Origin: Candidatus Omnitrophota bacterium
GTDB lineage: Bacteria; Omnitrophota; Gorgyraeia; M55B152
Assembly: GCA_018399975.1 (NCBI GenBank)
Contig: JAGYNU010000003.1
Span: 1-41,977, forward strand
Length of the DNA: 41,977 nucleotides
Direction of reading: 5' to 3'
The notes below the pieces were generated by a model that saw nothing but the letters and a program-made list of their open reading frames with translations, had not been told where the DNA came from and did no database searches. This document shows positions 24-13,025 of this stretch, in pieces; position 1 is the stretch's first letter; each line of letters begins with the position of its first letter. Position numbers and translations under genes: made by a program.

Positions 24-2121
24 ATGAATAAATTTATATTTTTAACATTAATTTTATTTTGTTTTGTAACTTTAATAAGTTATTTTATTTTTCCTGCATT
101 TGATTTTTGTAATAAAAACTTTGGGACCACAAGAATAGTTAGAGAATTTTCTATTATGCCATTTATGGATTTTGTAGAAAAAGTATTAGCTGCCCGGATT
201 AGAGAAGAGGTTAAGGTAAATCCTTTATATATTAAGTTTCGAGGAGGACATTTAAATCATTCGCGTAATTTGATTTTAAAAGCGGCTCGTTTGTCCCTTC
301 TTGAACAAGAAGGTGAATCTACAAAAAAAGCACTTGTTATAGGTGCGGGTAATTGTTTGGATATACCTATTTAAAGAGCTTACTGAAATGTTTGATGAAG
401 TTTATTTGTTGGATGTTGCTTATGAAACGACAGGTTCTATTGTAAAAGAAGGAAGATATTTTGAACTTAAAGATACAGATGATGGTTGGCAGGTAGAAGA
501 AAAATACCTTACCGAAGAACAACGGTCTAAACTTAAATTTGTAAATACAGATGCAACAGGAGGTGCTGTATTTGAAATAGTTAAAAGAGTTTACGCATTA
601 GTTGAAAATAATGATACTGTTTTAAAAGAAGATGTTTTAAAAATTTTTCAGGATATTCAAATTTCCGCCTTGCCTTTTGAAGAAAGTATGTTTGATTTAG
701 TTACTTCTTCAACTGTGTTTTCTGATTTTTTGACTCTTGTACAAGATTATATGATGTATGTTTTGTATGAAAAAGATGCTTCATTTTTTGTAAATGATAC
801 TGATGTAAATAAAGTATTAGTTGGACTAAATGAGAAAGTAGGTAAACATCATATAGCAGAAACGCACAGGATACTTAAAAATACCGGTAGGTTTTATTTT
901 TCCGCGTGTGTATTTAAAGGTGAAATTTATAAACCTATAGGAGGAAATGGAGCAAAATCCGGAGAATTTCTTGAGAGCGGCCAACAGATACGTCACCTTA
1001 CAAGGGAAGTAACTATGCCGGAAGATTTAAAAACATTGGTTCCTAATTATTTTCGTATAAAACCAGAAGAACAAGATAAATTGAATCTATGGTTATGGCC
1101 GGGCGAAGATGGTGAAAATGCTCTTGAAGTTCAGGCACTTATTCTATCTAAAAAAGAAAAAATTATACATACACATACAAATGGCGATATTATAAACATT
1201 CCTTTTGGTTCGCAATTATTAGAGACAGTTGATAATATATATACTTATGGTAGTTCTGTTAGGGATATAACAGGGCATCTAATATTTGCTATACCAGATT
1301 ATCTTTTAAATGAAGGGATTTATATATTAAACAACCGTTTGAATCCTTTAATTAGAAGTGAATTTAAAGAAGGTATTGTTTTTGGTGATGATTTTAAGCC
1401 ACATTTATATGCTACTTCTTTAGTGTTTCTTAACAGGAACGATTTAAGAAATATTTTTATCGGTAACGAAAACGGTAAAGTTTCGGGTATTACATTGGAC
1501 GGTAACATAGTATTAACCCGTTTAGCAAGAATATCCAATGATACAGTTCTTAAAAATGTTACTTTTAAAGCTGCTGCTTATGTAGGTAGAGGTTGGAATT
1601 TAGAAAATGTGAATATTGAGAGAAGTATATTATCTGATTGTATAACCCAAGCAGGAGAAGTGCTAAGCGTAAATCTGTCGCATATTAATATCGTTGGGTC
1701 CTATGTAGGAGCAGGAGCCGATATACAAGCTACTTTATTGCAAAACACGGTAATTCCAGAAGGTAGAACTTTTGAAAAAGAAACGGCAAATATAATAGGT
1801 TTAATGAGCGAAGATACTTGTTTAGCAAATTATTTTGAAAAAATTAATTTTGATGAACTTGATGATGGTAATTTATTAACTGGTTTATTAGATGGAGAAA
1901 TTAGAGTGCGTGGTTCCGATATTGATAGCTTGCCTTACTCAGGGAGAATAACAAGTCTTGCTACTGCTTTTTGTATATTATTACAAAAAGGTAATCAGGC
2001 ATTAGTAGAGCGATATTTATATCTATTACCTGAGGATGTTAAAAAGGAAATTAGAGAAAAAATGTCAATTGTAAGTATATTTGTCGATTCTGGTTTATAT
2101 GAAGAATTAAATAAGCAGTAA
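24..2121 (+). pseudogene. Signal-peptide protein with class I SAM-methyltransferase-like domain and C-terminal left-handed beta-helix-like region, split by a +1 frameshift at about 369-375 (ORFs 24..374 and 343..2121)
   Basis: ORF1 ends in the SAM-binding motif ALVIGAGNCLDIPI. The +1 frame continues KELTEMFDEVYLLD (motif II acidic strand), then LPFEESMFDLVTS and ETHRILKNTGRF. Hydrophobic N-terminus; hexapeptide-like I/V-rich C-terminal region. Confidence 0.7.
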
Positions 2122-2175
2122 CATTTTCTAAAACTTACCTGAATTTATTCTTTCCTTTTTTATATTTTCACTTTG

Positions 2176-2203
2176 TTGTAGAAAAAAACTCTTATGGTAT
2201 AAT
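2176..2203 (+). promoter_or_regulatory. Putative sigma-70 promoter of the U32-addAB operon
   Basis: TTGTAG-N16-TATAAT with extended TG before the -10; RBS GGGAGG at 2232-2237. Confidence 0.5.
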
Positions 2204-2249
2204 AGTACTATATTATTTGGATATTTTTAACGGGAGGTATTTTGAAATT

Positions 2250-3470
2250 ATGAAGGCAGTTAAAAAGCCAGAATTGTTGTCTCCTGCGGGTAATTGGAGT
2301 TCGTTGAAAACAGCAGTTTCAAGTGGTGCGGATAGTGTATATTTTGGCGTTAAAAGTTTAAATATGAGAGATAAAGCTGATAATTTCGATATTCTTGAAA
2401 TTAAAAAAGTGATGGATTATTTACATAAAAATAAAAAAAAAGGATATCTTGCACTTAATATTATAGTAATGAATAACGAAATATATAAAGTCAGAAGAAT
2501 TTTAGAAGAATCGAAAAAAGCTGAAGTAGATGCAGTGATATTGTGGGATATGGCAGTTTTGTCCATGGTTAAAGAATTAGATATGCGTGTGCATTTATCC
2601 ACACAGGCAAGTGTTTCTAATATAGAATCTTTAAAATTTTTTACAAAGTTAGGTGTAAAAAGAATAGTTTTAGCAAGAGAGTGTAATTTAAAAGATATAA
2701 AGGAAATGGTAAATCGGATAGATAAAGAGAATATCGATTGTGAGATTGAAACATTTATACACGGAGCGATGTGTGTAAGCATTTCAGGCAGATGTTTGTT
2801 ATCAGAATATTCTTTTGGTAAATCAGCGAATAGAGGGAAGTGCTTACAACCGTGTAGAAGAGAATACATAATTAAGGATGTGCAAGATGGTATGGAATAT
2901 GTTTTAGGTAAAAATTATATATTAAGTCCCAAAGATTTATGTACTATAGATTTTATCGATGATTTGATAAAATCAGGGGTAAGTGCATTTAAAATTGAAG
3001 GGAGGATGCGCCCATCGGAATATATAAAAATTGTAACATTGTCTTACCGTAAAGCCATAGATTCTTTTTTTGAAAATAAATTAACCACTGATTTAAAAAA
3101 TGACTTAAAGCAAGATTTAAAAGAGGTTTATAATAGGGGTTTTTCAGCTGGATTTTATCTTGGGACTCCTGGAAAAAAAGCAATTAGTAAACAGTTAGAG
3201 CATCTTTACAAAAAAATTTTTGTTGGAGAAGTAAAGAAATTTTATAAGAAAATAAGTGTAGCAGAAGTATTAATTCAAAATGGGTCTTTAATTAAAGGAG
3301 ATAAACTTTTATTTGCAGGCAAAAAAACACAGGCTGAATTTTCGACTGTAAAAGAAATGCAGAAAAATAATGAATTTATAGACCAAGCTAAAAAAGGTGA
3401 TTTTATAGGAATCAAATTGCCTTTTCGTGTAAGGCGTAATGATAAAGTATTTTTATGGAAGAAAAAATAA
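2250..3470 (+). CDS. U32 family peptidase-like Fe-S protein (TrhP-type tRNA hydroxylase-like)
   Basis: PELLSPAG, GADSVYFG, HLSTQ, HGAMCVSISGRC, NRGKCLQPCR, LSPKDL, KIEGR motifs; ATG 2250 follows the RBS. Confidence 0.9.
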   Translation: MKAVKKPELLSPAGNWSSLKTAVSSGADSVYFGVKSLNMRDKADNFDILEIKKVMDYLHKNKKKGYLALNIIVMNNEIYKVRRILEESKKAEVDAVILWDMAVLSMVKELDMRVHLSTQASVSNIESLKFFTKLGVKRIVLARECNLKDIKEMVNRIDKENIDCEIETFIHGAMCVSISGRCLLSEYSFGKSANRGKCLQPCRREYIIKDVQDGMEYVLGKNYILSPKDLCTIDFIDDLIKSGVSAFKIEGRMRPSEYIKIVTLSYRKAIDSFFENKLTTDLKNDLKQDLKEVYNRGFSAGFYLGTPGKKAISKQLEHLYKKIFVGEVKKFYKKISVAEVLIQNGSLIKGDKLLFAGKKTQAEFSTVKEMQKNNEFIDQAKKGDFIGIKLPFRVRRNDKVFLWKKK

Positions 3471-3484
3471 AAGGAGTTGTATAG

Positions 3485-6400
3485 TTGAAAAATAAATCTA
3501 ATGTTTCTAAGCTTCCAGAAGTTAGAGTTGTTGAAGCTTCAGCAGGTTCGGGCAAGACATATGCTTTATCGAAACGTTATCTCCAACTTATTTTAAATAA
3601 AGAAGCATCTCCTGAATTAATTAGAGATATTTTAGCGATTACTTTTACAAATGCTGCTGCCCGGGAGATGAAAGAAAATATCCTCGATTTTCTAAAAAGG
3701 ATTGCCTTAGATAGTTTTTCAAATTTAGAAAAAAAACAAGATATTTATTCCTGTCTTAAAATTACTCCTCAAATTGCCCGTCAGAAAGCTACAGATTTAA
3801 TGAATTATATTATACAAAATTATAATTTTTTTCAAATACAAACAATAGATAGTTTTATTAATATACTTTTAGCAGGATGTTCGTATAAACTTGATATTTC
3901 GGCACAATTTAAAATAAAGGAAAATTACAAAGATTATTTGTCCTATAGTTTAGATGAATGTATACAGGAAGCTAATTATAGTAAAAAAGTGAAAAATGTT
4001 TTTGACAATTTTATAAACCAGTATTTGTTTTTAGAGAATAAACATAGTTGGTTTCCTAAAGATAATATTTTAGGTCTTATATATTCTTTGTTTCATTATA
4101 ATACTGTTTATGGGAGGAATTTTTTTAAATTTGGTTTTGAAAAACAAAGTTTATTTGCAAAAAAAAATGAGATACTTAACTCGATTAAAGTTTTAAAAGA
4201 TAAAGCACCTGAAGGAACAAATAAACGTTTCTTAAATAGTATAAATAAATTTTTAGAAAAAAATCAAAAAATTTTCGATTTTGAAGATTTAAGCGATTAT
4301 TTTAAAAGAGAAGTTTTTCCGATAAATAAAGGATATGAAGTTCCTAACGAAATAAAAAAAACATGGGGAAGTGTTAGAAAAAAAATAAAAGAGACATCTA
4401 AAAAGGAAGCATTATCTTTATTTAATTGTTATATTGATATTTTTAACATGGTACACCAATTTTTTAAAAAAACTACAGCTGGAGAGGACATTATATTTTT
4501 AGGAGAACTTAACCGCGAGGCCCGGATGTTATTTGAGAATTCGGGAATTACCGTGCCGGAGCTTTATTATAGGCTTGCTGCTCGTTTTAAACATTATTTG
4601 ATAGATGAATTTCAAGATACTAGTTTGTTACAATGGCAGAATTTAAAACTTATGATAGAAGATGCGCTTTCGTCTGGGGGGTCTTTATTTTATGTTGGTG
4701 ATAAAAAACAGGCAATTTATAGATTTAGAGGTGGGGAAGTTTCTTTGTTCGATGATATAAAAGAGGAATTGTTTAATTTTAATATTAGGACTAGTTCACT
4801 TAATAAAAACTATAGAAGCCAGAAAGCTATAGTGGATTTTAATAATAAATTGTTTTCTAAAAGTAATCTGGCAGAGTTTATCCAAAAATTTCAGTCCTCC
4901 GATAATAATGACCTTGGATATTTTTCTAAAGAAGATGCAGATGAAATTATCGATTCTTTTGCTGAATCCGAACAGATATATAAAAAAGACAAGCAGAATG
5001 GATATGTTAATGTGCAACAAATAGAATGTAATAATAAAGAAGAAAGAAACGAAATAGTTAAAAATAGACTTTTTGATAGAGTTAAAGAATTAAGGAAAAG
5101 ATTTTCATTGAAAGATATAGCGGTTTTATTGCGTAGTAATAAAGATGTTGAATTAATAAGCGGATGGTTGATTGAGCAAGGGATACCGGTTGAATCGGAT
5201 AAGACTTTAAATATTAAAAATAATAAATTTATAAAAGAAATTGTGTCATTTTTAAAATTTTTAAACTCTCCTATTGATAATATCTCATTTGTTTCTTTTA
5301 TATATAGCGATATTTTTTCTAAAGTATCAGGTTTAGATAGAAAAGAAATCGAGGAATTTTTAATAAAACAAAGAGATAATTACATCCATAAAAGTACATT
5401 TTATATATATAGAGAATTTAGAGAAAACTATCAGAAGATTTGGAAAGATTATATAGAAGATTTTTTTAAAAACGTTGGGTTAATCGGGTTTTATGAATTG
5501 GTAATTGATATTTTTCAACAAATGCAGATATTTAAGAATTTTCCGGAGTATCAAGGATTTTTTATGCATTTTCTTGAAATGATAAAAACAAAAGAAGAAG
5601 ATTATCAAAATTTAGATGATTTTCTGGGTTATTTTGAAAATGCAGATGAAACAGACCAGGCATTTTATGTAAATTCATCTGCCACCGATGCAATAAAAGT
5701 TAAAACCATACATAAAGCAAAAGGTTTAGGGTTCCCAGTTGTTATTTTACCATTTTTGGAATTAAATAAATTACAGTTAAGTCCCGGAGGCAGAGGTAAA
5801 TCTTCTTATATAGTGAAAGAGTTTGAAGATAATCTTGTTTTATTAAGATTAGATAAAAAATATGCTAAATTTTCTTCTTTTATAAAAGATTTTTACATTG
5901 ATGAATATAAAAAGTCTTTTATCGATGAGCTTAATACGATTTACGTTGCTTTTACAAGGGCTAAATATGAAATGCATATTTTTATTCCTGTTGGTATTAA
6001 CCACAGGAAAAATTTGGTGAAGTTTCTCGTCCCGGAAAATATATACGAATGTGGGAAGCCACGTTTATATAAAGAATTAAATAATAAAGAGGAGCATAAA
6101 AATATTGAAATACCTGTTGTTGATTACAAAAATTGGATTAGTTTTTTAAAAAATGAGTTTGTAGATATTAATACTATAAAAAACAGAGAGGAAATATTAA
6201 AGGGCAGTATATTGCATTTTATATTATCTTGTATAGGAAATTTAAAAAATAAGTCTAAAGAAGAAATTTTAAAGAAAGCTACAAAAAAAGCAAATACGGA
6301 ATTTCCTGATACAAAAAATTTTTCAGGTGAGAAGTCCATGGTTAACGCATTATTAAAAGATGATGTTTTAAAGAGATTTTTCTATCTTGATAAAAATGAT

Positions 6401-6649
6401 AGTGTTTTTACAGAAAAGGAATTAGTAGATAAAAAAGGACATACTAAAAGAATAGACAGGCTTATTATTAAGGCTGATGAAAATGAAGTTTGGGTAATTG
6501 ATTATAAACTTAAAGGGGCATTATTAAAAGAATATAAAGACCAGATTATAGAATATATTGATTTAGTTAAACAAATATATCCGGAGTTTAAAATAAAAGG
6601 TTTTATAATATTTATACAGGAATTACAGGTAGAGGAAATAAATGGTTAG
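3485..6649 (+). CDS. addA: AddA/RecB-like UvrD helicase-nuclease
   Basis: EASAGSGKT, AITFTNAAA, IDEFQDTS, VGDKKQAIYRFRGG, NYRS, TIHKAKGL, YVAFTRA and C-terminal RIDRL...VIDYK nuclease. Confidence 0.9.
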   Translation: MKNKSNVSKLPEVRVVEASAGSGKTYALSKRYLQLILNKEASPELIRDILAITFTNAAAREMKENILDFLKRIALDSFSNLEKKQDIYSCLKITPQIARQKATDLMNYIIQNYNFFQIQTIDSFINILLAGCSYKLDISAQFKIKENYKDYLSYSLDECIQEANYSKKVKNVFDNFINQYLFLENKHSWFPKDNILGLIYSLFHYNTVYGRNFFKFGFEKQSLFAKKNEILNSIKVLKDKAPEGTNKRFLNSINKFLEKNQKIFDFEDLSDYFKREVFPINKGYEVPNEIKKTWGSVRKKIKETSKKEALSLFNCYIDIFNMVHQFFKKTTAGEDIIFLGELNREARMLFENSGITVPELYYRLAARFKHYLIDEFQDTSLLQWQNLKLMIEDALSSGGSLFYVGDKKQAIYRFRGGEVSLFDDIKEELFNFNIRTSSLNKNYRSQKAIVDFNNKLFSKSNLAEFIQKFQSSDNNDLGYFSKEDADEIIDSFAESEQIYKKDKQNGYVNVQQIECNNKEERNEIVKNRLFDRVKELRKRFSLKDIAVLLRSNKDVELISGWLIEQGIPVESDKTLNIKNNKFIKEIVSFLKFLNSPIDNISFVSFIYSDIFSKVSGLDRKEIEEFLIKQRDNYIHKSTFYIYREFRENYQKIWKDYIEDFFKNVGLIGFYELVIDIFQQMQIFKNFPEYQGFFMHFLEMIKTKEEDYQNLDDFLGYFENADETDQAFYVNSSATDAIKVKTIHKAKGLGFPVVILPFLELNKLQLSPGGRGKSSYIVKEFEDNLVLLRLDKKYAKFSSFIKDFYIDEYKKSFIDELNTIYVAFTRAKYEMHIFIPVGINHRKNLVKFLVPENIYECGKPRLYKELNNKEEHKNIEIPVVDYKNWISFLKNEFVDINTIKNREEILKGSILHFILSCIGNLKNKSKEEILKKATKKANTEFPDTKNFSGEKSMVNALLKDDVLKRFFYLDKNDSVFTEKELVDKKGHTKRIDRLIIKADENEVWVIDYKLKGALLKEYKDQIIEYIDLVKQIYPEFKIKGFIIFIQELQVEEING

Positions 6650-9470
6650 CAAAGTAATTACATATAATTTCAATGAAGATTTTATAGATTGTTTGGTAAA
6701 TTACATACAAAAGGAATTTATTAGTAAAAGTAAATATGATTTATCAAAGCTTGCTGTTATTTTTGGAGGGAAACGGCCTTCTTTATTTGTTAAAAGGCAA
6801 CTTTCTGTTAGTATTGATAAAAGTTTTTATCCGCCTAAGTTTTTTTCCATCGACGAATTTATAAATTATATTGTAAAGAAACAAAAAAATGTTTTACCTA
6901 TAAATGATTTAAATGTTTGTTATATATTGTATAATTTAACTAAAAAGATTGCTCCTGAGGTTTTATCGGGGCGCGAAAAATTTTCGGAGTTTTTACCATG
7001 GGCTAAAGAATTGGCTAGATTTATAGATGAATTAGATTTAGAAATAATAGATAGCGAAGCTTTGAAGAGCATTCAATATAACGCCGAGATTGGTTATGAA
7101 ATTCCGGAAAATGTTAATAAACTTTTAGAGCATATAATTTCGATAAGGCAGGCGTATCATAAAAAACTCAAAGATAATAATACTTATCCACGTAGTTTAA
7201 AATATAATACTGCTGCTAATCTTATTTCTAATATTGAGTTTCCCGAATTCGATAAAATTTTATTTTGCAACTTTTTTTATCTAAGTAAATCAGAAGAGAA
7301 AATTATTAAAAGTCTTTATGATAGAGATAAAACTATTTTGTTTTTTCAGAGAGATGACAGAATTTGGCCTGTTTTTGAAAAGTTGTCCGATAATTTATCC
7401 TGTAAAATAAAACCTGATAGAAAAATAGAACATAAACCTAATATAGAAATACAAAGGGGTTTCGATATCCATTCTCAAATAGGATTAGTTAGAAAATATT
7501 TAAAGAAAAAAGACAATTTCGATGAAACTGTTATTGTATTGCCGGATTCGAATAGTCTTATACCTCTATTATCCGAAATTTCTGTTTTTATCGATGATTT
7601 TAATGTATCGATGGGTTACCCTTTAAATAGGACTACTCTTTATAGTTTATTCCAAGCTATATTTAAATCACAGAGTACCTGTAGAGATAATATGTATTAT
7701 ACCAAGGATTATTTAAAAGTTTTAACGCATCCTTTTATGAAAAATCTTGCTATAATTAATTCTAATTCTTCTATTACCAGAGTATTAGTTCACAAAATAG
7801 AGGAATTATTAAAAGGTGTTGAAAAAACGAATTTAAGCGGTAATTTATTTATAAAACTTTCAAATATACAACAGTATGAAAAATTATATTCTTTAGTTAT
7901 ATCTACTTTAAAAAATATGCATATAGATGTTAATGTTTCTGATTTGAAAACCGTTGTAGAAAAGTTGCATTTCTTTGGGTTTAATCTATGGAGTAAAATA
8001 AAGAATTTTTCTGATTTATCTAAGTCTTTAGATGAATTCCTTAATATACTTATAGACAAAAGTTTTATTGGGTTTTATCCTTTAAATTTAAAAATTTTAG
8101 AAAAAATATTTTCTATTAAAGATAAATTACAAAATGCTTTATTTAATCACGAGGAGTTTGATTTAAATGATATTTTTAAAATTTTTGATGATAAGCTTGC
8201 AAATGAATTAGTTTCTTTTTATGGTTCACCTTTAAAAGGTTTACAGATATTGGGACTTTTTGAAACACGTGCTTTGAGTTTTAAAAACGTTATAGTTATG
8301 AATGTTAACGAATCTGTTTTACCTAAACTTAAAGTTTCTGAACCTTTGATTCCGAGACAGATTATGATAAGTTTAGGGCTTGACCGGCTTGAACAGGCAG
8401 AAGAAATTCAAAGGTATCATTTTATGCGTCTTATTTCATCTGCCGAGAATGTGTATTTAGTTTACAATGATAACCCGGAAAATATAAGAAGTCGTTTTAT
8501 CGAGGAATTAATATGGGACAAACAAGTGCATGAACAAAAACTTTCAGTTTTTTCTGAACCTCAGGCTAAGTTTAAAACAGAAGTTTTATCACATAAAAGT
8601 ACGATACAGAAAACTCCTAAAATGATAGAGGTTTTAAGAAAATTAACATATTCTCCTTCCAGCATTGATACGTATCTTAATTGTCCTTTACGATTTTATT
8701 ATCAATATGTTTTAAAGTTAAAAGAAACAGAAGAGATGTTAGAAGAACCTAAAGGGTCTGATATGGGTAGTTTTATTCATGAATTACTTGAAGAAGCTTT
8801 TAGCGAATTTGTTGGAAGTAAACCTGTTATTGATGAAAATTTCAAAGGCAAATTTTTGAAACTATTTGATAAAAAATTTGATGTTATAATGAAGAAAAGA
8901 ATGAAAGCAGAAGCTTTTATGGTAAAAGATGTGTTGGAATATCGGTTAACTAAATTTTTAGATAAAGAAAAAACAAGAGAAGTTGAGGAAATTGTATCTT
9001 TAGAAGATAGCAGTTTAGGAAGCAATATAGAATTAAGCGGAAATAAATTTGATTTTAAATGTATAATTGATAGATTGGATAAACTTGAAAACGGGAGCTT
9101 TTTGATTATAGATTATAAAACAGGAACGAGTGCCAAAGCTCCTAAAGGAATTAAAAGCTTAAATAATATGGAGTTTAACCGTGAAAGCATAAAAAAAACA
9201 ATCAGGTCTTTTCAATTACCTTTATATTATTATTTTGTCAGAAAAAATTATAAAGAAGCATCTTTAAATGCGGTTTTGTATAACCTTAAAACTTTGGATT
9301 TTACAGCATTTGTTAAAAACATTAAATATGCAGATGATGTTATGCAGAAATGCATACAAGCTTTAGATTGTATTGTTCAGGAGATTTTAGATGTTGATAA
9401 AGATTTTGAAGCAGATGAATCAAAACCTCAAAATTGCAAATATTGTCCGTTTTTTTATTTGTGCAGATAG
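6642..9470 (+). CDS. addB: AddB-like PD-(D/E)XK nuclease subunit with Fe-S staple
   Basis: Overlaps addA; GLQILGLFETRAL, SPSSIDTYLNCP, IDRLD...IIDYKTG, C-terminal CKYCPFFYLC. Confidence 0.85.
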   Translation: MVSKVITYNFNEDFIDCLVNYIQKEFISKSKYDLSKLAVIFGGKRPSLFVKRQLSVSIDKSFYPPKFFSIDEFINYIVKKQKNVLPINDLNVCYILYNLTKKIAPEVLSGREKFSEFLPWAKELARFIDELDLEIIDSEALKSIQYNAEIGYEIPENVNKLLEHIISIRQAYHKKLKDNNTYPRSLKYNTAANLISNIEFPEFDKILFCNFFYLSKSEEKIIKSLYDRDKTILFFQRDDRIWPVFEKLSDNLSCKIKPDRKIEHKPNIEIQRGFDIHSQIGLVRKYLKKKDNFDETVIVLPDSNSLIPLLSEISVFIDDFNVSMGYPLNRTTLYSLFQAIFKSQSTCRDNMYYTKDYLKVLTHPFMKNLAIINSNSSITRVLVHKIEELLKGVEKTNLSGNLFIKLSNIQQYEKLYSLVISTLKNMHIDVNVSDLKTVVEKLHFFGFNLWSKIKNFSDLSKSLDEFLNILIDKSFIGFYPLNLKILEKIFSIKDKLQNALFNHEEFDLNDIFKIFDDKLANELVSFYGSPLKGLQILGLFETRALSFKNVIVMNVNESVLPKLKVSEPLIPRQIMISLGLDRLEQAEEIQRYHFMRLISSAENVYLVYNDNPENIRSRFIEELIWDKQVHEQKLSVFSEPQAKFKTEVLSHKSTIQKTPKMIEVLRKLTYSPSSIDTYLNCPLRFYYQYVLKLKETEEMLEEPKGSDMGSFIHELLEEAFSEFVGSKPVIDENFKGKFLKLFDKKFDVIMKKRMKAEAFMVKDVLEYRLTKFLDKEKTREVEEIVSLEDSSLGSNIELSGNKFDFKCIIDRLDKLENGSFLIIDYKTGTSAKAPKGIKSLNNMEFNRESIKKTIRSFQLPLYYYFVRKNYKEASLNAVLYNLKTLDFTAFVKNIKYADDVMQKCIQALDCIVQEILDVDKDFEADESKPQNCKYCPFFYLCR

Positions 9471-9502
9471 AAGTTATCCGATAAACTTATAAACAAAAAT
9501 AT

Positions 9503-10420
9503 ATGTTAAATAGAATTTTAAATTTTTATAACCGTTTATTTGTAGTATGGGTAATTATAGGAGGTGTAGCAGCTTATTTTTGGTCTGGAACGTTTTTGCA
9601 TTTAAAAAGCTATATGGAGATTTTTTTTGGCATAACGATGTTTGGAATTGGTATGGTGCTCAGTGTTAAGGATTTTGAGAATATTTTTAAACATCCCTGG
9701 GTAGTTTTAGTGGGAGTTGTTGCCCAGTTTACAATTATGCCATTTTCAGCTTATGGAGTCGCGAAATTATTTTCTTTTTCTAAAGAATTTTCTTTAGGCC
9801 TTATTCTTACCGGCTCTGCTCCAGGAGCTATGGCAAGTAATGTATTGAGTTATCTCGCAGGAGCAGATGTAGCTTATTCAGTATCTCTTACTACAGTTTC
9901 TACTTTAATTACACCTATAATGACGCCGGCTTTAACGCTTTTTCTAGCACATACACTTTTTGAAGTGCCTTTTTGGGATATGTTTTTAAGTGTAATAAAA
10001 ATTGTAGTTATTCCTCTTATTTTAGGATTTACAGTTAAAAGGATTTTTGATAAAAAAATAAAGCCTATAGAAAAAATATTTCCTGCTATTTCTACTACAT
10101 TCATTGTTTTTATCTGTGCTCTGGTTATTGCTTTAAATAGGGAATATTTAGAAAACATAAGGTATCTGATATTCGCAGGAGTTTTGTTGCTTAATATATG
10201 TGGTATGATATTTGGGTATATAGTTGGAAAATTTTTTAGATTTGATATATTAAAAAGACGGACTCTTGCTATAGAAATTGGTATGCAAAATGCTGGATTG
10301 GGAAGTGTCTTAGCTTTAAAACATTTTAATGAACGCGTAGCTTTTCCCGCAGTAATTTTTGTTTTTATATGTATTTTTACTGCGTCATTTTTAGTCCAAA
10401 TATGGTCGAAGAATAAATAA
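9503..10420 (+). CDS. Bile acid:sodium symporter (BASS/PanS-like) family transporter
   Basis: MFGIGM, AQFTIMP, APGAMASNV, IEIGMQNAGL motifs; multiple hydrophobic helices. Confidence 0.92.
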   Translation: MLNRILNFYNRLFVVWVIIGGVAAYFWSGTFLHLKSYMEIFFGITMFGIGMVLSVKDFENIFKHPWVVLVGVVAQFTIMPFSAYGVAKLFSFSKEFSLGLILTGSAPGAMASNVLSYLAGADVAYSVSLTTVSTLITPIMTPALTLFLAHTLFEVPFWDMFLSVIKIVVIPLILGFTVKRIFDKKIKPIEKIFPAISTTFIVFICALVIALNREYLENIRYLIFAGVLLLNICGMIFGYIVGKFFRFDILKRRTLAIEIGMQNAGLGSVLALKHFNERVAFPAVIFVFICIFTASFLVQIWSKNK

Positions 10421-10444
10421 CTAATATAAGAAAGGAGAAATGAT

Positions 10445-10612
10445 ATGTTTGATTTTGATAAATTAGGTGATATGAGCAAAATGGCAAAAGAAGCAAAAGA
10501 AATTCAGAAACAACAAAGTGAGTTCCAAAGCAAACAAATTGAACTGTTAAAAGATATTTCTTTGAAATTAGATAAACTGATTAGTATAATTAAAAGCAAG
10601 GGTTTTGATTGA
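10445..10612 (+). CDS. 55-aa small coiled-coil protein, absent from the ORF track (MFDFDKLGDMSKMAKEAKEIQKQQ...)
   Basis: Strong RBS AAGGAG at 10432-10437, ATG 10445, TGA 10610-10612; fills the intergenic gap; N-terminus reminiscent of YbaB/EbfC. Confidence 0.75.
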   Translation: MFDFDKLGDMSKMAKEAKEIQKQQSEFQSKQIELLKDISLKLDKLISIIKSKGFD

Positions 10613-10643
10613 TATTTGTAGGAATGATATAAAAAAAATGATT

Positions 10644-11258
10644 ATGAAAAAAATAATTTGTATTTTATTTTTTTTGGTTTTTATTTATTACCCAGATATC
10701 TCTTATTGTTTTTTTTATAGTAGGATTGTTGAGGAAGATACACCATTTGTTTACAAGGTGACCTTAAAAAATTTTAGCGTTTCCTCAGATAAAGGAAAAA
10801 CATGGGAGGTGATTCAAAAAAAACCCATAGCAGTAGATATTGTTAAAAACAATGCGATTGAATCTGTTGCTTATAAAATTCCGCCAGGCAGATATAATAA
10901 GGTAAAATATATGCCAAATGCTACTTTTATTATGAAAGGATATGTAAAGTATAAGGATTTAGTTTATTATACAAGTGTTGAAGCCGAAAATGGAACGGCA
11001 GTAACAGAAAATTTCGATTTGAATAATCCTCCTGTGGATTATGGAGAAGCTGAACTTACTGTTTTCGGATATAACGAATGGGAGTATTTAAGTTTCAAGA
11101 CAGAGAACATTAAATTTTCAGTAAAAGATTCAAAGATTAAAGAGATTTATATAAAAGTTGATTTAACTAATTCTTTAGCATTGTATCAAACCAGAGCAGA
11201 CCCAAATGTCTACCAGCTTATGCCGGTTTCACCTTCTATTATCGTATTTATAGAATAA
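10644..11258 (+). CDS. Exported hypothetical protein, DUF4382-like beta-rich (start at 10638 or 10644)
   Basis: MKKIICILFFLVF signal peptide; TPFVYKVTLK...W...IPPGRY pattern. Confidence 0.6.
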   Translation: MKKIICILFFLVFIYYPDISYCFFYSRIVEEDTPFVYKVTLKNFSVSSDKGKTWEVIQKKPIAVDIVKNNAIESVAYKIPPGRYNKVKYMPNATFIMKGYVKYKDLVYYTSVEAENGTAVTENFDLNNPPVDYGEAELTVFGYNEWEYLSFKTENIKFSVKDSKIKEIYIKVDLTNSLALYQTRADPNVYQLMPVSPSIIVFIE

Positions 11259-11269
11259 TTATTGTTCTT

Positions 11270-11692
11270 TTATATAGTATATAAGATTAAATACCTGCTG
11301 CTATCTTTTAGTATTACTTGCGTATTTTTGTTATTACAGTAACCAGGTTTTTCACTGACCGATAAAAATAATAAATTTCTAATCCCTTCTTCTTCTTTAA
11401 TTTCGAATAGTTTTGAACACAATCGAGTTCCTATTCCATTCGAACGATATTTTTTATTAACTGCTACGTAAAAATCTATTAAAGGAATAGGAGGTTCTGT
11501 TCCGTGTTCAGTTATAACACTTACTATTTCTTCTATTTCATGAGTTTCAAAATATTCTTCGAGGGTTTCTGTTTTATATAATAAACCTCCGATAATATTT
11601 CCGGTTTTTGGGTCTTTTGCAATTATAGCGTCATATTCTTCATTTAGGTTTTCCTGGCCAGGTAATATTCGTCTTTCTTGTCTAAAAATTTC
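11270..11692 (-). pseudogene. GNAT-family acetyltransferase reading frame lacking a canonical start codon
   Basis: Minus-strand 140-codon open frame with acetyl-CoA motif A (FYVAVNKKYRSNGIGTRL). It is preceded by GGGAG and an in-frame TAG where an ATG would be expected. Confidence 0.7.
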
Positions 11693-11892
11693 CTATTTTA
11701 AAAAAACTCCCTACTGTTTTCCTATCTTAGTTATTATTTTTTTTAATCACAAAAACTTGATTTTTTACAGCTGTATCAGGTATACTTAATGTGAGGTGTA
11801 AATATATAAATTTTTTTATAATTTATAACAAAAATTTACTATTTTATTGAAAGCTGCATTTAACACCAAGATATTTTATATTATTTATATCT

Positions 11893-11919
11893 ATAACTTA
11901 TTATATTGCAGTAAGTTAT
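11893..11919. promoter_or_regulatory. Palindrome ATAACTTA-N11-TAAGTTAT, IHF-like site
   Basis: Perfect 8-bp inverted repeat about 35-60 nt upstream of a -24/-12 element. Confidence 0.45.
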
Positions 11920-11954
11920 GTTTATATGGTTATTAATGTATATGTATTAATAAT

Positions 11955-11971
11955 TTGGTATAAAAGTTGCT
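11955..11971 (+). promoter_or_regulatory. Sigma-54 (-24/-12) promoter
   Basis: TTGGTATAAAAGTTGCT has the invariant GG-N10-GC spacing and TTGC; about 50 nt upstream of ATG 12021. Confidence 0.65.
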
Positions 11972-12020
11972 TTTAATGTAAGACTATTGAGCTAAAAATA
12001 TATTAGTTTAGGATAAAAAA

Positions 12021-13025
12021 ATGAAATATTCTAAAATAAGTATAATTATATTTATTTACTTAATATTGTTTGGTAATTTGTATTTTTCTGCCGATGCAAG
12101 GATGGTGAGAGAGAATACTTCCTTTGAACAAGAAATAATTTCTTATTTAATAGAAAACAGCGAGCTTAAGGAATTAGGTTTGTCTCAAACATTTATAAGA
12201 GATATATCTCTATTTATGAGACATTATCTTGAAAAAAGAGCAGAGTCACGACATTTATCTTTAGAAAGATATTTGCAACAAATAAAGACAGATAAACGAG
12301 AATTTGAATTTTTAATAAGCAAAATATCAGATTCTCTAGATATAGATGAATTTTCTTTTTATTCTGCATTTTTTAATTTTAATGTAGGTGTTTTTAGAAA
12401 ATTCTTAAATGAGCTAATTAAGGATAAAGTTAGGCAATCTGATTTAAGCATTAAGATAAAGAGCGTTGCTGGCAATAGGGGGATGGAAGCATATACAGCT
12501 GCTATGGTTGTTTATGATAGATTAGAAAGATATGCTTCTGAAAATTTATTTAGTCATGAAAGTGACTTGGAAAGAAAAAAAGAATTAGTAAAAGATTGGA
12601 TTAAAAAATGGGATATAGAGATTGCCATATATGATGTCGGATTAAGACTTTTAGAACATGCAAAGATAGGAGATTATTTTTATGTTGATATTTTTGGAGT
12701 TATTCCTGAAGGATTTCCACGCGGAAAATATGAACAAAACTTACTTCAAAGATTCTTTATTCCTTATGGAGGAAAAAGGAACGCTTATCAAATTGATTCT
12801 CTACTGCATTCATGGGTAAGAGAAAAATATATTGATTTAACTGATGAGTTTTCAAAAGATATACTTCTAGATGATTCAGGACATGAAATTGCATTTTTCA
12901 TTTCAGAAGGAGCCCCTTATTCAATTGTTAGACTAACTGAGGATATTTTAAAAGACTCTTTGAATTCTATTTATTCGGGGTTACTATTTTTTGCCTTGGA
13001 TGAATACCGAATAATAGAACCGTAA
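12021..13025 (+). CDS. Signal-peptide protein with divergent CheR-like methyltransferase domain
   Basis: Signal peptide ending ADA. IKIKSVAGNRGMEAYTAAM resembles CheR IWSAGCSTGEEPYSLAM; IAIYDVGLRLLEHAKIGDY resembles ATDIxxxxLxxAxxGxY; SLERYLQQIKTDKREFEFL resembles the CheR N-terminal helix. Confidence 0.6.
   Translation: MKYSKISIIIFIYLILFGNLYFSADARMVRENTSFEQEIISYLIENSELKELGLSQTFIRDISLFMRHYLEKRAESRHLSLERYLQQIKTDKREFEFLISKISDSLDIDEFSFYSAFFNFNVGVFRKFLNELIKDKVRQSDLSIKIKSVAGNRGMEAYTAAMVVYDRLERYASENLFSHESDLERKKELVKDWIKKWDIEIAIYDVGLRLLEHAKIGDYFYVDIFGVIPEGFPRGKYEQNLLQRFFIPYGGKRNAYQIDSLLHSWVREKYIDLTDEFSKDILLDDSGHEIAFFISEGAPYSIVRLTEDILKDSLNSIYSGLLFFALDEYRIIEP

Follow-up and report, generated by a model that had tools for sequence, protein, structure and literature searches.

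The stretch of DNA analysed here (the window; 41,977 nucleotides, contig C33) belongs to the genome of a Candidatus Omnitrophota bacterium (assembly GCA_018399975.1, in the following G000; 1.18 Mb in 109 contigs, 30.5% G+C, 89% complete). It contains three genes, numbered 1 to 3, whose predicted products carry a short arginine-led motif close behind a signal peptide (Table 1). These are the window's only signal-peptide-type open reading frames (ORFs) that do not encode multi-pass membrane proteins, and in all three products a K/R-rich start and then a hydrophobic stretch precede the motif. An earlier reading of the DNA (the sequence-only reading) had pointed out the strings RIVREFSIMPF (nt 132-164), RIVEEDTPF (10722-10748) and RMVRENTSF (12099-12125), the latter two with Arg as residue 27; all were found in place. 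The same reading had described the bodies of the three proteins as unrelated. An all-versus-all BLASTP comparison of 25 motif proteins bears this out, as it returned two weak pairs only and none among the window proteins.

Table 1. Genes and motif instances of the window.
Feature	Position (nt)	Strand	Basis
Gene 1: signal peptide, RIVR motif, SAM-methyltransferase-like region, C-terminal domain	24..2121	+	ORFs, orthologs
Motif instance 1: R-I-V-R-E, R = residue 37 from ATG 24	132..146	+	sequence
Gene 1 frameshift within methyltransferase motif I; stop at 372-374	366..374	+	sequence, related contig, orthologs
Gene 2: 204-aa all-beta protein with signal peptide	10644..11258	+	ORF; no Pfam match
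Motif instance 2: R-I-V-E-E, R27 from ATG 10644	10722..10736	+	sequence
Gene 3: signal peptide, RMVR motif, CheR-fold SAM methyltransferase, 334 aa	12021..13025	+	ORF, structure model
Motif instance 3: R-M-V-R-E, R27 from ATG 12021, right after S-A-D-A	12099..12113	+	sequence

The structure of the gene 3 product was modelled with AlphaFold on the basis of a 10-sequence alignment (mean pLDDT 89.5). The ten best Foldseek matches of this model were all CheR/glutamate O-methyltransferases (5y4r, 5xly, 1bc5, 1af7; E 9e-10 to 3e-6), and the Pfam CheR match was sub-threshold (19.7 against a cut-off of 27 bits). Unlike CheR of chemotaxis operons, the protein has a signal peptide, and no che genes adjoin. 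The motif segment (residues 22-32) has a pLDDT below 50 and lies between the leader helix and the confidently folded body; in the model, the motif of gene 3 thus sits in a disordered linker. For gene 2, structure prediction was poor (pLDDT 43.3), and a language-model search for look-alikes in the Atlas pointed to the cluster 'DUF4382' (score 0.92), which is a lead only.

The distribution of the motif was determined in the whole genome. Six-frame translation of G000 yielded 3446 ORFs of at least 60 aa, in which R[IM]V.E occurred 16 times; four occurrences lie directly after a signal-like segment, namely the three in the window and one on contig C60. Reading through the N-termini of all signal-like ORFs revealed many further cases of the form R-x-[V/I]-R. 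Signal-like refers to N-terminal sequence features, from which export and cleavage are predicted. Within residues 15-75 of 268 signal-like proteins, R.[VI]R was present in 30 proteins (1.77 per 1000 positions), compared with densities of 0.27 in the rest of the signal-like proteins, 0.32 in other proteins and 0.41 in residues 15-75 of the latter. Further, every gapped pattern of two or three residues was enumerated in the 50 residues after the hydrophobic core. Among the resulting 28,985 patterns 'R.VR', found 18 times after the core and 31 times elsewhere, was enriched 15.3-fold (binomial p ~1e-15) and ranked second overall, with only a hydrophobic-composition pattern above it; the lipobox 'GCA' surfaced too. 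The claim that the window proteins share a real motif, enriched and confined to the region just after the signal peptide genome-wide, is thereby upheld.

A set of 28 members was curated from 44 regex matches among 311 signal-like ORFs of G000: YidD, a sensor kinase, a biotin carboxylase and multi-pass proteins were removed, and two members with T at position 3 plus the RIVE protein were added. Position 1 is R in all 28 members. Position 2 is occupied by L, I, V, T or M, and position 3 by V (17), I (9) or T (2) but never by L. Position 4 is R in 27 members, the single exception being the E in gene 2 (RIVEE). At position 5, E and D are present in five members each, and position -1 is A in eight and F/Y in ten. 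The consensus in G000 reads [A/F/Y/S]-R-x-[V/I/T]-R, and relatives mostly have R-R-[V/I/x]-[K/R]. The sequence-only reading had derived R-[IM]-V-x-E-[DN]-T-x-F from the window alone; of this, E, [DN], T and F turned out not to be conserved, and the core is R-x-[V/I]-[R/K]. Its shorter version R-[IM]-V-x-E describes real instances but is a narrow view, in which the second Arg was overlooked and an E was included that few members have.

Codon usage at the motif varies, with AGA, AGG, CGT, CGC and CGA encoding Arg and all four Val codons in use, so the motif is not a nucleotide motif. Although the proteome contains 10.2% K and 4.0% R, K never substitutes for the motif R in G000. Selection on the motif acts at the amino-acid level. 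The frequency of A at position -1 (8/28) exceeds the background of 5% (p 5e-5), and in most of those cases position -3 is a small residue. Ala at -1 fits a predicted signal-peptidase cleavage directly before the motif; one S26 signal peptidase was found in each of five genomes. The spacer between hydrophobic core and motif ranges from 0 to about 30 residues, the long ones being polar, and the N-tails ahead of the core have a median net charge of +2.

The proteins marked by the motif (tagged proteins) are diverse. Pfam domains detected in those of G000 comprise aminotransferase I/II, SecA_DEAD with a preprotein-binding domain, Pribosyltran_N, Glucosamine_iso with HAD, PGM, HD, ARMT1, TreT-type GT1, HEAT repeats, class II aldolase with HhH, and RVT_1; for roughly half of the set Pfam gave no match. 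The bodies are mutually unrelated and of the kind found in cytoplasmic enzymes. What had been noticed for SAM-dependent domains, namely their location behind signal peptides, therefore holds and extends to other cytoplasm-type enzymes (Pfam, Foldseek). Housekeeping paralogs without a signal peptide are present in G000 for the aminotransferase, SecA, Prs and NagB/Pgl-like bodies, so that several tagged proteins are additional copies, although the genome is reduced. Between the tagged Glucosamine_iso + HAD protein (C44:32379-34193) and the NagB/Pgl-like enzyme (C99:21076-21837), identity is 45% over 241 residues, which points to a housekeeping enzyme that joined the tagged class rather recently. 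The SecA-like protein had no relative in a search of the genome contigs, and a search of the phylum at E<=1e-35, a threshold that is too strict, matched G000 alone (1/301 genomes). For a 1263-aa protein, the Atlas matches were GT2-type clusters with 144-159 shared features, too weak to be used.

Tagged genes tend to form runs on the same strand: four in a row on contig C36, five on C45 and three to four on C60, with further runs on C21, C44 and C96. One of these islands includes a small PilZ-like gene without a signal peptide (C44:1559-1963; RxxxR and N-x-S-x-x-G recognised by eye), which precedes a gene for a 2120-aa membrane-associated protein (C44:2133-8492) and two motif genes and recalls the PilZ genes reported beside giant genes.

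Conservation of the motif was examined in four ortholog families, i.e. those of the three window genes and that of the PRPP-synthetase-like protein. Sixteen of 23 homologs of the latter have a signal-like N-terminus, and 12 of these match the regex at the equivalent place (P0016 being doubtful), in the forms RVVR, RMVR, RRIR, RRVR, RRVK, RRIK, RRER and RRQK. The remaining four show L-A-P-R or L-R-P-[PI] in place of the motif, and the seven homologs that lack such a start are either fragmentary or part of longer fusions. Of 45 CheR-like homologs, 31 have a signal-like start and nine of those match; these nine consist of all seven aligned small (340-590 aa) signal-like homologs and two doubtful cases. 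Seven other CheR-like homologs carry L-A-P-K/S, L-S-P-K or L-R-L-P instead, and 12 CheR-module proteins of at least 1600 aa have neither the R motif nor an L-A-P-type form. Five of six gene 1 orthologs with a signal-like start match the regex, the sixth (P0089) having RRVS by eye, and the one homolog of gene 2 (P0081) has RVVK. Outside these counts, an ARMT1-like homolog in genome G001 carries RLVR and a CheR-like homolog in G210 carries RRLK. As had been anticipated, the motif keeps its place in orthologs, in all three window families and the fourth, at 24-59% identity and behind leaders that have diverged. Some variants (RRIL, RRVS, RRVH, RRTQ) are without the second basic residue.

L-A-P-[K/R/S], L-R-P-P or L-R-L-P was seen at the place of the motif in P0008, P0009, P0012, P0013, P0016, P0049, P0050, P0055-P0057, P0065, P0067 and P0070; two proteins have RR and then L-A-P within a few residues. 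They may represent an alternative version of the signal or an extension of it.

Three relatives were sampled blind: G030 (279 kb, family f31), G035 (400 kb, a complete genome) and G001 (298 kb, the 20 largest contigs). Of 40 relatives, G001 alone belongs to the same order as G000. In G030, 15 of 80 signal-like ORFs match the broad regex (4.03 vs 1.73 per 1000), and 13 of the matches were judged genuine, including those in five consecutive large genes. The bodies of the tagged G030 proteins include UDPGP, GNAT, PAS-GGDEF, HATPase_c and HAD. Five proteins with different bodies (HATPase_c, HAD, unassigned) have a near-identical leader (L049:609-2495, L059:2-3630), which ends in P-A-D-A or A-Q-A directly before R-R-[V/I]-R. 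The C45 run of tagged genes in G000 is syntenic with the five-gene run of G030.

Two of the tagged families were found again inside very large proteins when profiles were searched against 301 sampled Omnitrophota genomes. Single proteins of 2,200-6,600 aa contain as many as seven copies of the CheR-like body. The profile of this family matched 22/301 genomes; the body is full-length and free-standing in G000 and G210 only, while the module resides in open frames of 1,334 to 54,392 aa in eight genomes, and the remaining weak matches include separate canonical CheR adjoining che genes. The PRPP-synthetase-like body was found in 8/301 genomes. In G000, G230 and G030 it forms a protein of its own that has the signal peptide and the motif, and in the other five it lies within frames of 4,140-21,496 aa. 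G000 itself has no ORF longer than 2,590 aa. The longest stop-free frame with a CheR-like module (54,392 aa; L109, G252:C6, ~374829-375254) exceeds the giant proteins quoted in the part available to us of a preprint on giant Omnitrophota genes (10.1101/2023.11.21.568195).

According to the same part of that preprint, giant Omnitrophota proteins contain SecA DEAD, preprotein-binding and S8/C39 peptidase domains as well as transmembrane anchors, T2SS-like loci are located near the giant genes and PilZ genes after them, and the Arg motif is not mentioned there (10.1101/2023.11.21.568195). The giant 'archaeovorin'/dockerin-type proteins, as far as this source describes them, resemble the tagged set in sharing module families and SecA-like domains (10.1101/2023.11.21.568195). 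They differ from it in that their modules are fused and, in the giant proteins examined, without the motif, whereas in G000 every module is encoded by a gene of its own and has its own signal peptide and Arg motif. Because the CheR-like and PRPP-synthetase-like bodies recur in giant frames and G000 is without a giant ORF, the tagged proteins look like free-standing counterparts of giant-protein modules.

The remainder of the interval between genes 1 and 3 is ordinary, with genes for a U32 peptidase, a UvrD-type helicase and its PD-(D/E)XK nuclease partner and an SBF transporter. The sole ORF in the approximately 760 bases between genes 2 and 3 (11259-12020) is a doubtful 140-aa minus-strand ORF, and neither this region nor the window as a whole had a match in an Rfam scan. 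Gene 1 is split into two ORFs (24..374 and 343..2121) by a 1-base frameshift near nt 370, where a T/A run holds one surplus base. A contig of about 88% identity from the public sequencing run X3 is without one base at 370; public runs cover just 0.14-0.16 of the window and were used solely for this base. The orthologs P0083-P0087 and P0089 are unsplit single ORFs of 678-693 aa. The frameshift may be an assembly error, or gene 1 may be a real pseudogene.

No NCBIfam model covers the motif in the N-terminal regions of 10 proteins searched, and no description of it was found in the literature, although supplementary signal-peptide tables might hold one. We compared the motif with systems in which residues near a signal peptide direct proteins to a destination. 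PEXEL (RxLxE/Q/D) of Plasmodium and RxLR(-dEER) of oomycetes are Arg motifs of host-dependent organisms that follow the signal peptide of many unrelated proteins at a distance of a few to some tens of residues; the genes of these proteins are often clustered. The Omnitrophota motif is likewise short and led by Arg, lies within about 60 residues after a Sec-type signal peptide and marks many unrelated proteins encoded by clustered genes. The likeness to PEXEL and RxLR drawn by the sequence-only reading is sound with respect to form and position; it does not extend to the consensus, in that position 3 is never L and a second basic residue takes the place of L-x-E. The present case also differs in that the organism is a bacterium, and neither a plasmepsin-V-like or other processing enzyme nor a cognate translocon was found.

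In bacteria, the AST domain of accessory-Sec (SecA2/SecY2) substrates such as GspB comprises about 20 residues after the signal peptide of serine-rich glycoproteins and has no Arg consensus. This segment gives a particular class of preproteins a route of their own, as the Omnitrophota motif may do, and the system includes a SecA paralog; G000 has a free-standing SecA_DEAD-like protein, and giant proteins carry SecA-like domains according to the accessible part of the preprint (10.1101/2023.11.21.568195). The Omnitrophota motif is different in being short with an Arg consensus, and the SecA-like protein is itself tagged. By analogy, the AST segment would be the nearest bacterial counterpart in logic. 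The Tat signal (S/T-R-R-x-F-L-K) resembles the motif in its paired Arg followed by a hydrophobic residue and K and in its cargo of folded, cofactor-type enzymes. It differs in that the Tat motif precedes the hydrophobic core, whereas the Omnitrophota motif follows it and no hydrophobic stretch comes after. TatC was found in G030 (C36:28880-29491) and G230 (C1:67803-68408), both of family f31 and with the twin-Arg form; searches of G000 (89% complete) and G001, both with the R-h-V-R form, and of G035 did not find it. These genomes are too few for a correlation between TatC and motif form. The location of the motif behind the core and the failure to find TatC in G000 led us to reject a Tat signal. 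The LES of Bacteroidota and the +2 rule of Lol avoidance concern lipidated Cys N-termini with acidic or K-(D/E)-rich residues. There, as might be the case here, a few residues right after the cleavage site decide on the compartment; the tagged proteins differ from them in being without a lipobox.

The R-x-V/I-R tag sets apart about 28 unrelated, cytoplasm-type proteins of G000 and is apparently undescribed. Its existence, enrichment and position, its conservation in orthologs and selection at the amino-acid level, the disorder of the segment, the kinds of body and the clustering of the genes are direct results of the analyses above. Starting from these, we give about even chances to the motif being a lineage-specific tag by which effector-like enzymes of Omnitrophota, exported by Sec, are sorted or processed. 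We infer that Sec would export such proteins and that the single signal peptidase I would then cleave them, often immediately ahead of the first Arg. The Arg motif, exposed in its disordered segment, would then be read by a second component, either a receptor or translocon or a processing enzyme, which would send the whole class to a common destination, be it the cell surface, a secretion apparatus, or a host or prey cell. The disordered segment, Ala at -1, the presence of one S26 peptidase, the N-tails with a net charge of +2, the exclusive use of Arg and the fixed position 3 all fit a linear signal read after cleavage.

A more specific proposal, which we put forward tentatively and regard as rather doubtful, is that the tag is the address label of a bacterial effector arsenal of about 25-30 separate Sec-exported enzymes, i.e. 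a prokaryotic counterpart of PEXEL and RxLR. Some Omnitrophota lineages would thus produce singly the enzyme modules which in others are fused into giant proteins. A T2SS/T4P-like or SecA-like machine would carry out the second step and deliver the proteins to the surface or into the cytoplasm of host or prey, and SAM-, ATP-, GTP- and PLP-dependent activities would be exerted inside that cell. The kinds of body pose the main puzzle. As GGDEF, HATPase and SAM-, ATP- or PLP-dependent bodies would be useless in a periplasm, either delivery into another cell, as proposed by the sequence-only reading, or an uncleaved anchor (see below) is favoured.

Several points weigh against a sorting or processing tag on exported enzymes. 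We know of no function outside the cytoplasm for GGDEF, HATPase and SAM- or ATP-dependent bodies. The PilZ-like gene without a signal peptide in a motif island, recognised by eye, fits a cytoplasmic, membrane-tethered location equally. In E. coli, Sec export is impaired by basic residues at the beginning of the mature protein, and export and cleavage are themselves predicted from sequence features. Because the spacer varies in length, the motif would not always be at the new N-terminus. Searches of G000 (89% complete) for a candidate reader among the S8, C39, C11 and omptin peptidase families gave no match. In the giant and large ORFs examined, the motif is neither at the start nor clearly before the same modules. 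Finally, the motif is not a general trait of the phylum: the sample of G035 showed no enrichment (1.73 vs 2.48; 8/93 signal-like ORFs match the broad regex, none convincingly), and that of G001 contained 0/52, a targeted search having found one case elsewhere in this genome. Given the enrichment in G030 and its lack in the G035 and G001 samples, the motif is lineage-restricted within the class and its members are clustered.

Of the other explanations, one holds that the N-terminal segment is not cleaved and anchors the protein, the Arg cluster acting as a positive-inside signal or 'export block' by which the body is kept in the bacterium's own cytoplasm at the membrane. The modules, like those of the giant proteins, would then act together there, e.g. 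in envelope glycan synthesis and c-di-GMP signalling. We consider this unlikely, though it would suit bodies that require ATP, GTP, SAM, PLP or nucleotide sugars, and the PAS-GGDEF member of G030, with a hydrophobic segment of 19 residues by eye, and the PilZ-like gene of the G000 island agree with it. So do the three giant ORFs with a PRPP-synthetase-like module that were examined, none of which has an N-terminal signal peptide, and the transmembrane anchors, SecA-like domains and subsequent PilZ genes described for giant proteins in the available part of the preprint (10.1101/2023.11.21.568195). It is at odds with the positive charge of the N-terminal flank itself (median net +2), as in N-in signal peptides, and with the 12 large CheR-module proteins (at least 1600 aa), which do begin with signal peptides. 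Nor do the segments look like reverse (N-out/C-in) anchors, as their N-tails are net +2 instead of uncharged or acidic, although the basic C-flank of such anchors is present. Several hydrophobic cores look too short by eye to span a membrane, although a crude measure of h-region length had the same median of 12 in motif, multi-TM and other proteins and does not discriminate between them. Moreover, the motif directly adjoins A-x-A-like sites, core and motif may be as far apart as about 30 polar residues, and a plain charge effect would require neither Arg to the exclusion of Lys in a Lys-rich proteome nor a position 3 fixed as V/I/T.

It is quite improbable, in our view, that R-x-x-R or R-R-x-[K/R] has no addressing role and is the cleavage site of an Arg endopeptidase of the furin/kexin or omptin kind which trims a pro-segment. 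The form of the motif is suggestive, with R at positions 1 and 4 in 27/28 members and the dibasic RR elsewhere; the variable spacer after the predicted signal-peptidase site could be a pro-segment, and the segment is disordered and accessible according to the model. S8 and C39 peptidase domains do occur on giant Omnitrophota proteins as described in the accessible part of the preprint (10.1101/2023.11.21.568195). The failure to find S8, C39, C11 and omptin peptidases in G000 counts against a protease site as well (PF00082, the S8 convertase, was not found in G000, and the control matched in 8/14 genomes), and C11 and omptin were likewise not found in G030, G230 and G210. Since the motif often follows the predicted signal-peptidase site directly, cleavage would cost only four residues. 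A furin-type site would not need position 3 (V/I) to be as conserved as it is, and the forms RRIL, RRVS, RRVH and RRTQ are without the second basic residue. A further suggestion, that a leader cassette spread to many genes through duplication or recombination and carried the motif along as a passenger with no function of its own, appears highly improbable. The five G030 proteins with different bodies and a near-identical leader ending in P-A-D-A-R-R-[V/I]-R would be explained by it, as would two adjoining genes on C36 of G000 which have the same first leader residues. In general, the leaders of G000 are diverse in sequence and length while R at position 1, V/I at 3 and R at 4 are fixed; BLASTP gave one pair only with the leader inside the match, the motif is kept in orthologs of 24-59% identity with diverged leaders, and its codons differ. 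To chance or composition, i.e. a short pattern seen by eye in three AT-rich ORFs, we assign a negligible probability. The first reading did comprise only three instances, and the broad regex also matches unrelated proteins, as in G035. The density scan, the pattern enumeration with its 15-fold enrichment (p ~1e-15 among 28,985 patterns) and the regex counts in four ortholog families led to its rejection.

Omnitrophota are widespread, mostly uncultured nanobacteria that are thought to be parasites or predators. Linear sorting motifs behind a signal peptide are known from eukaryotic pathogens and for lipoproteins of Bacteroidota, and to our knowledge none is known for soluble proteins that diderm bacteria export by Sec. 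As a kind, sorting or processing motifs in this position are therefore not new, but the R-x-V/I-R form of Omnitrophota apparently is, within the literature searched. If the tagged proteins are instead held at the membrane of their own cell, the motif would still represent a new membrane-anchoring device and mark an assembly of membrane-bound enzymes. If it is a sorting or processing tag, it can be searched for and would yield a catalogue of candidate effectors for any genome that bears it, would connect free-standing genes with the modules of giant proteins, and would offer a handle for finding the machinery by which the motif is read.

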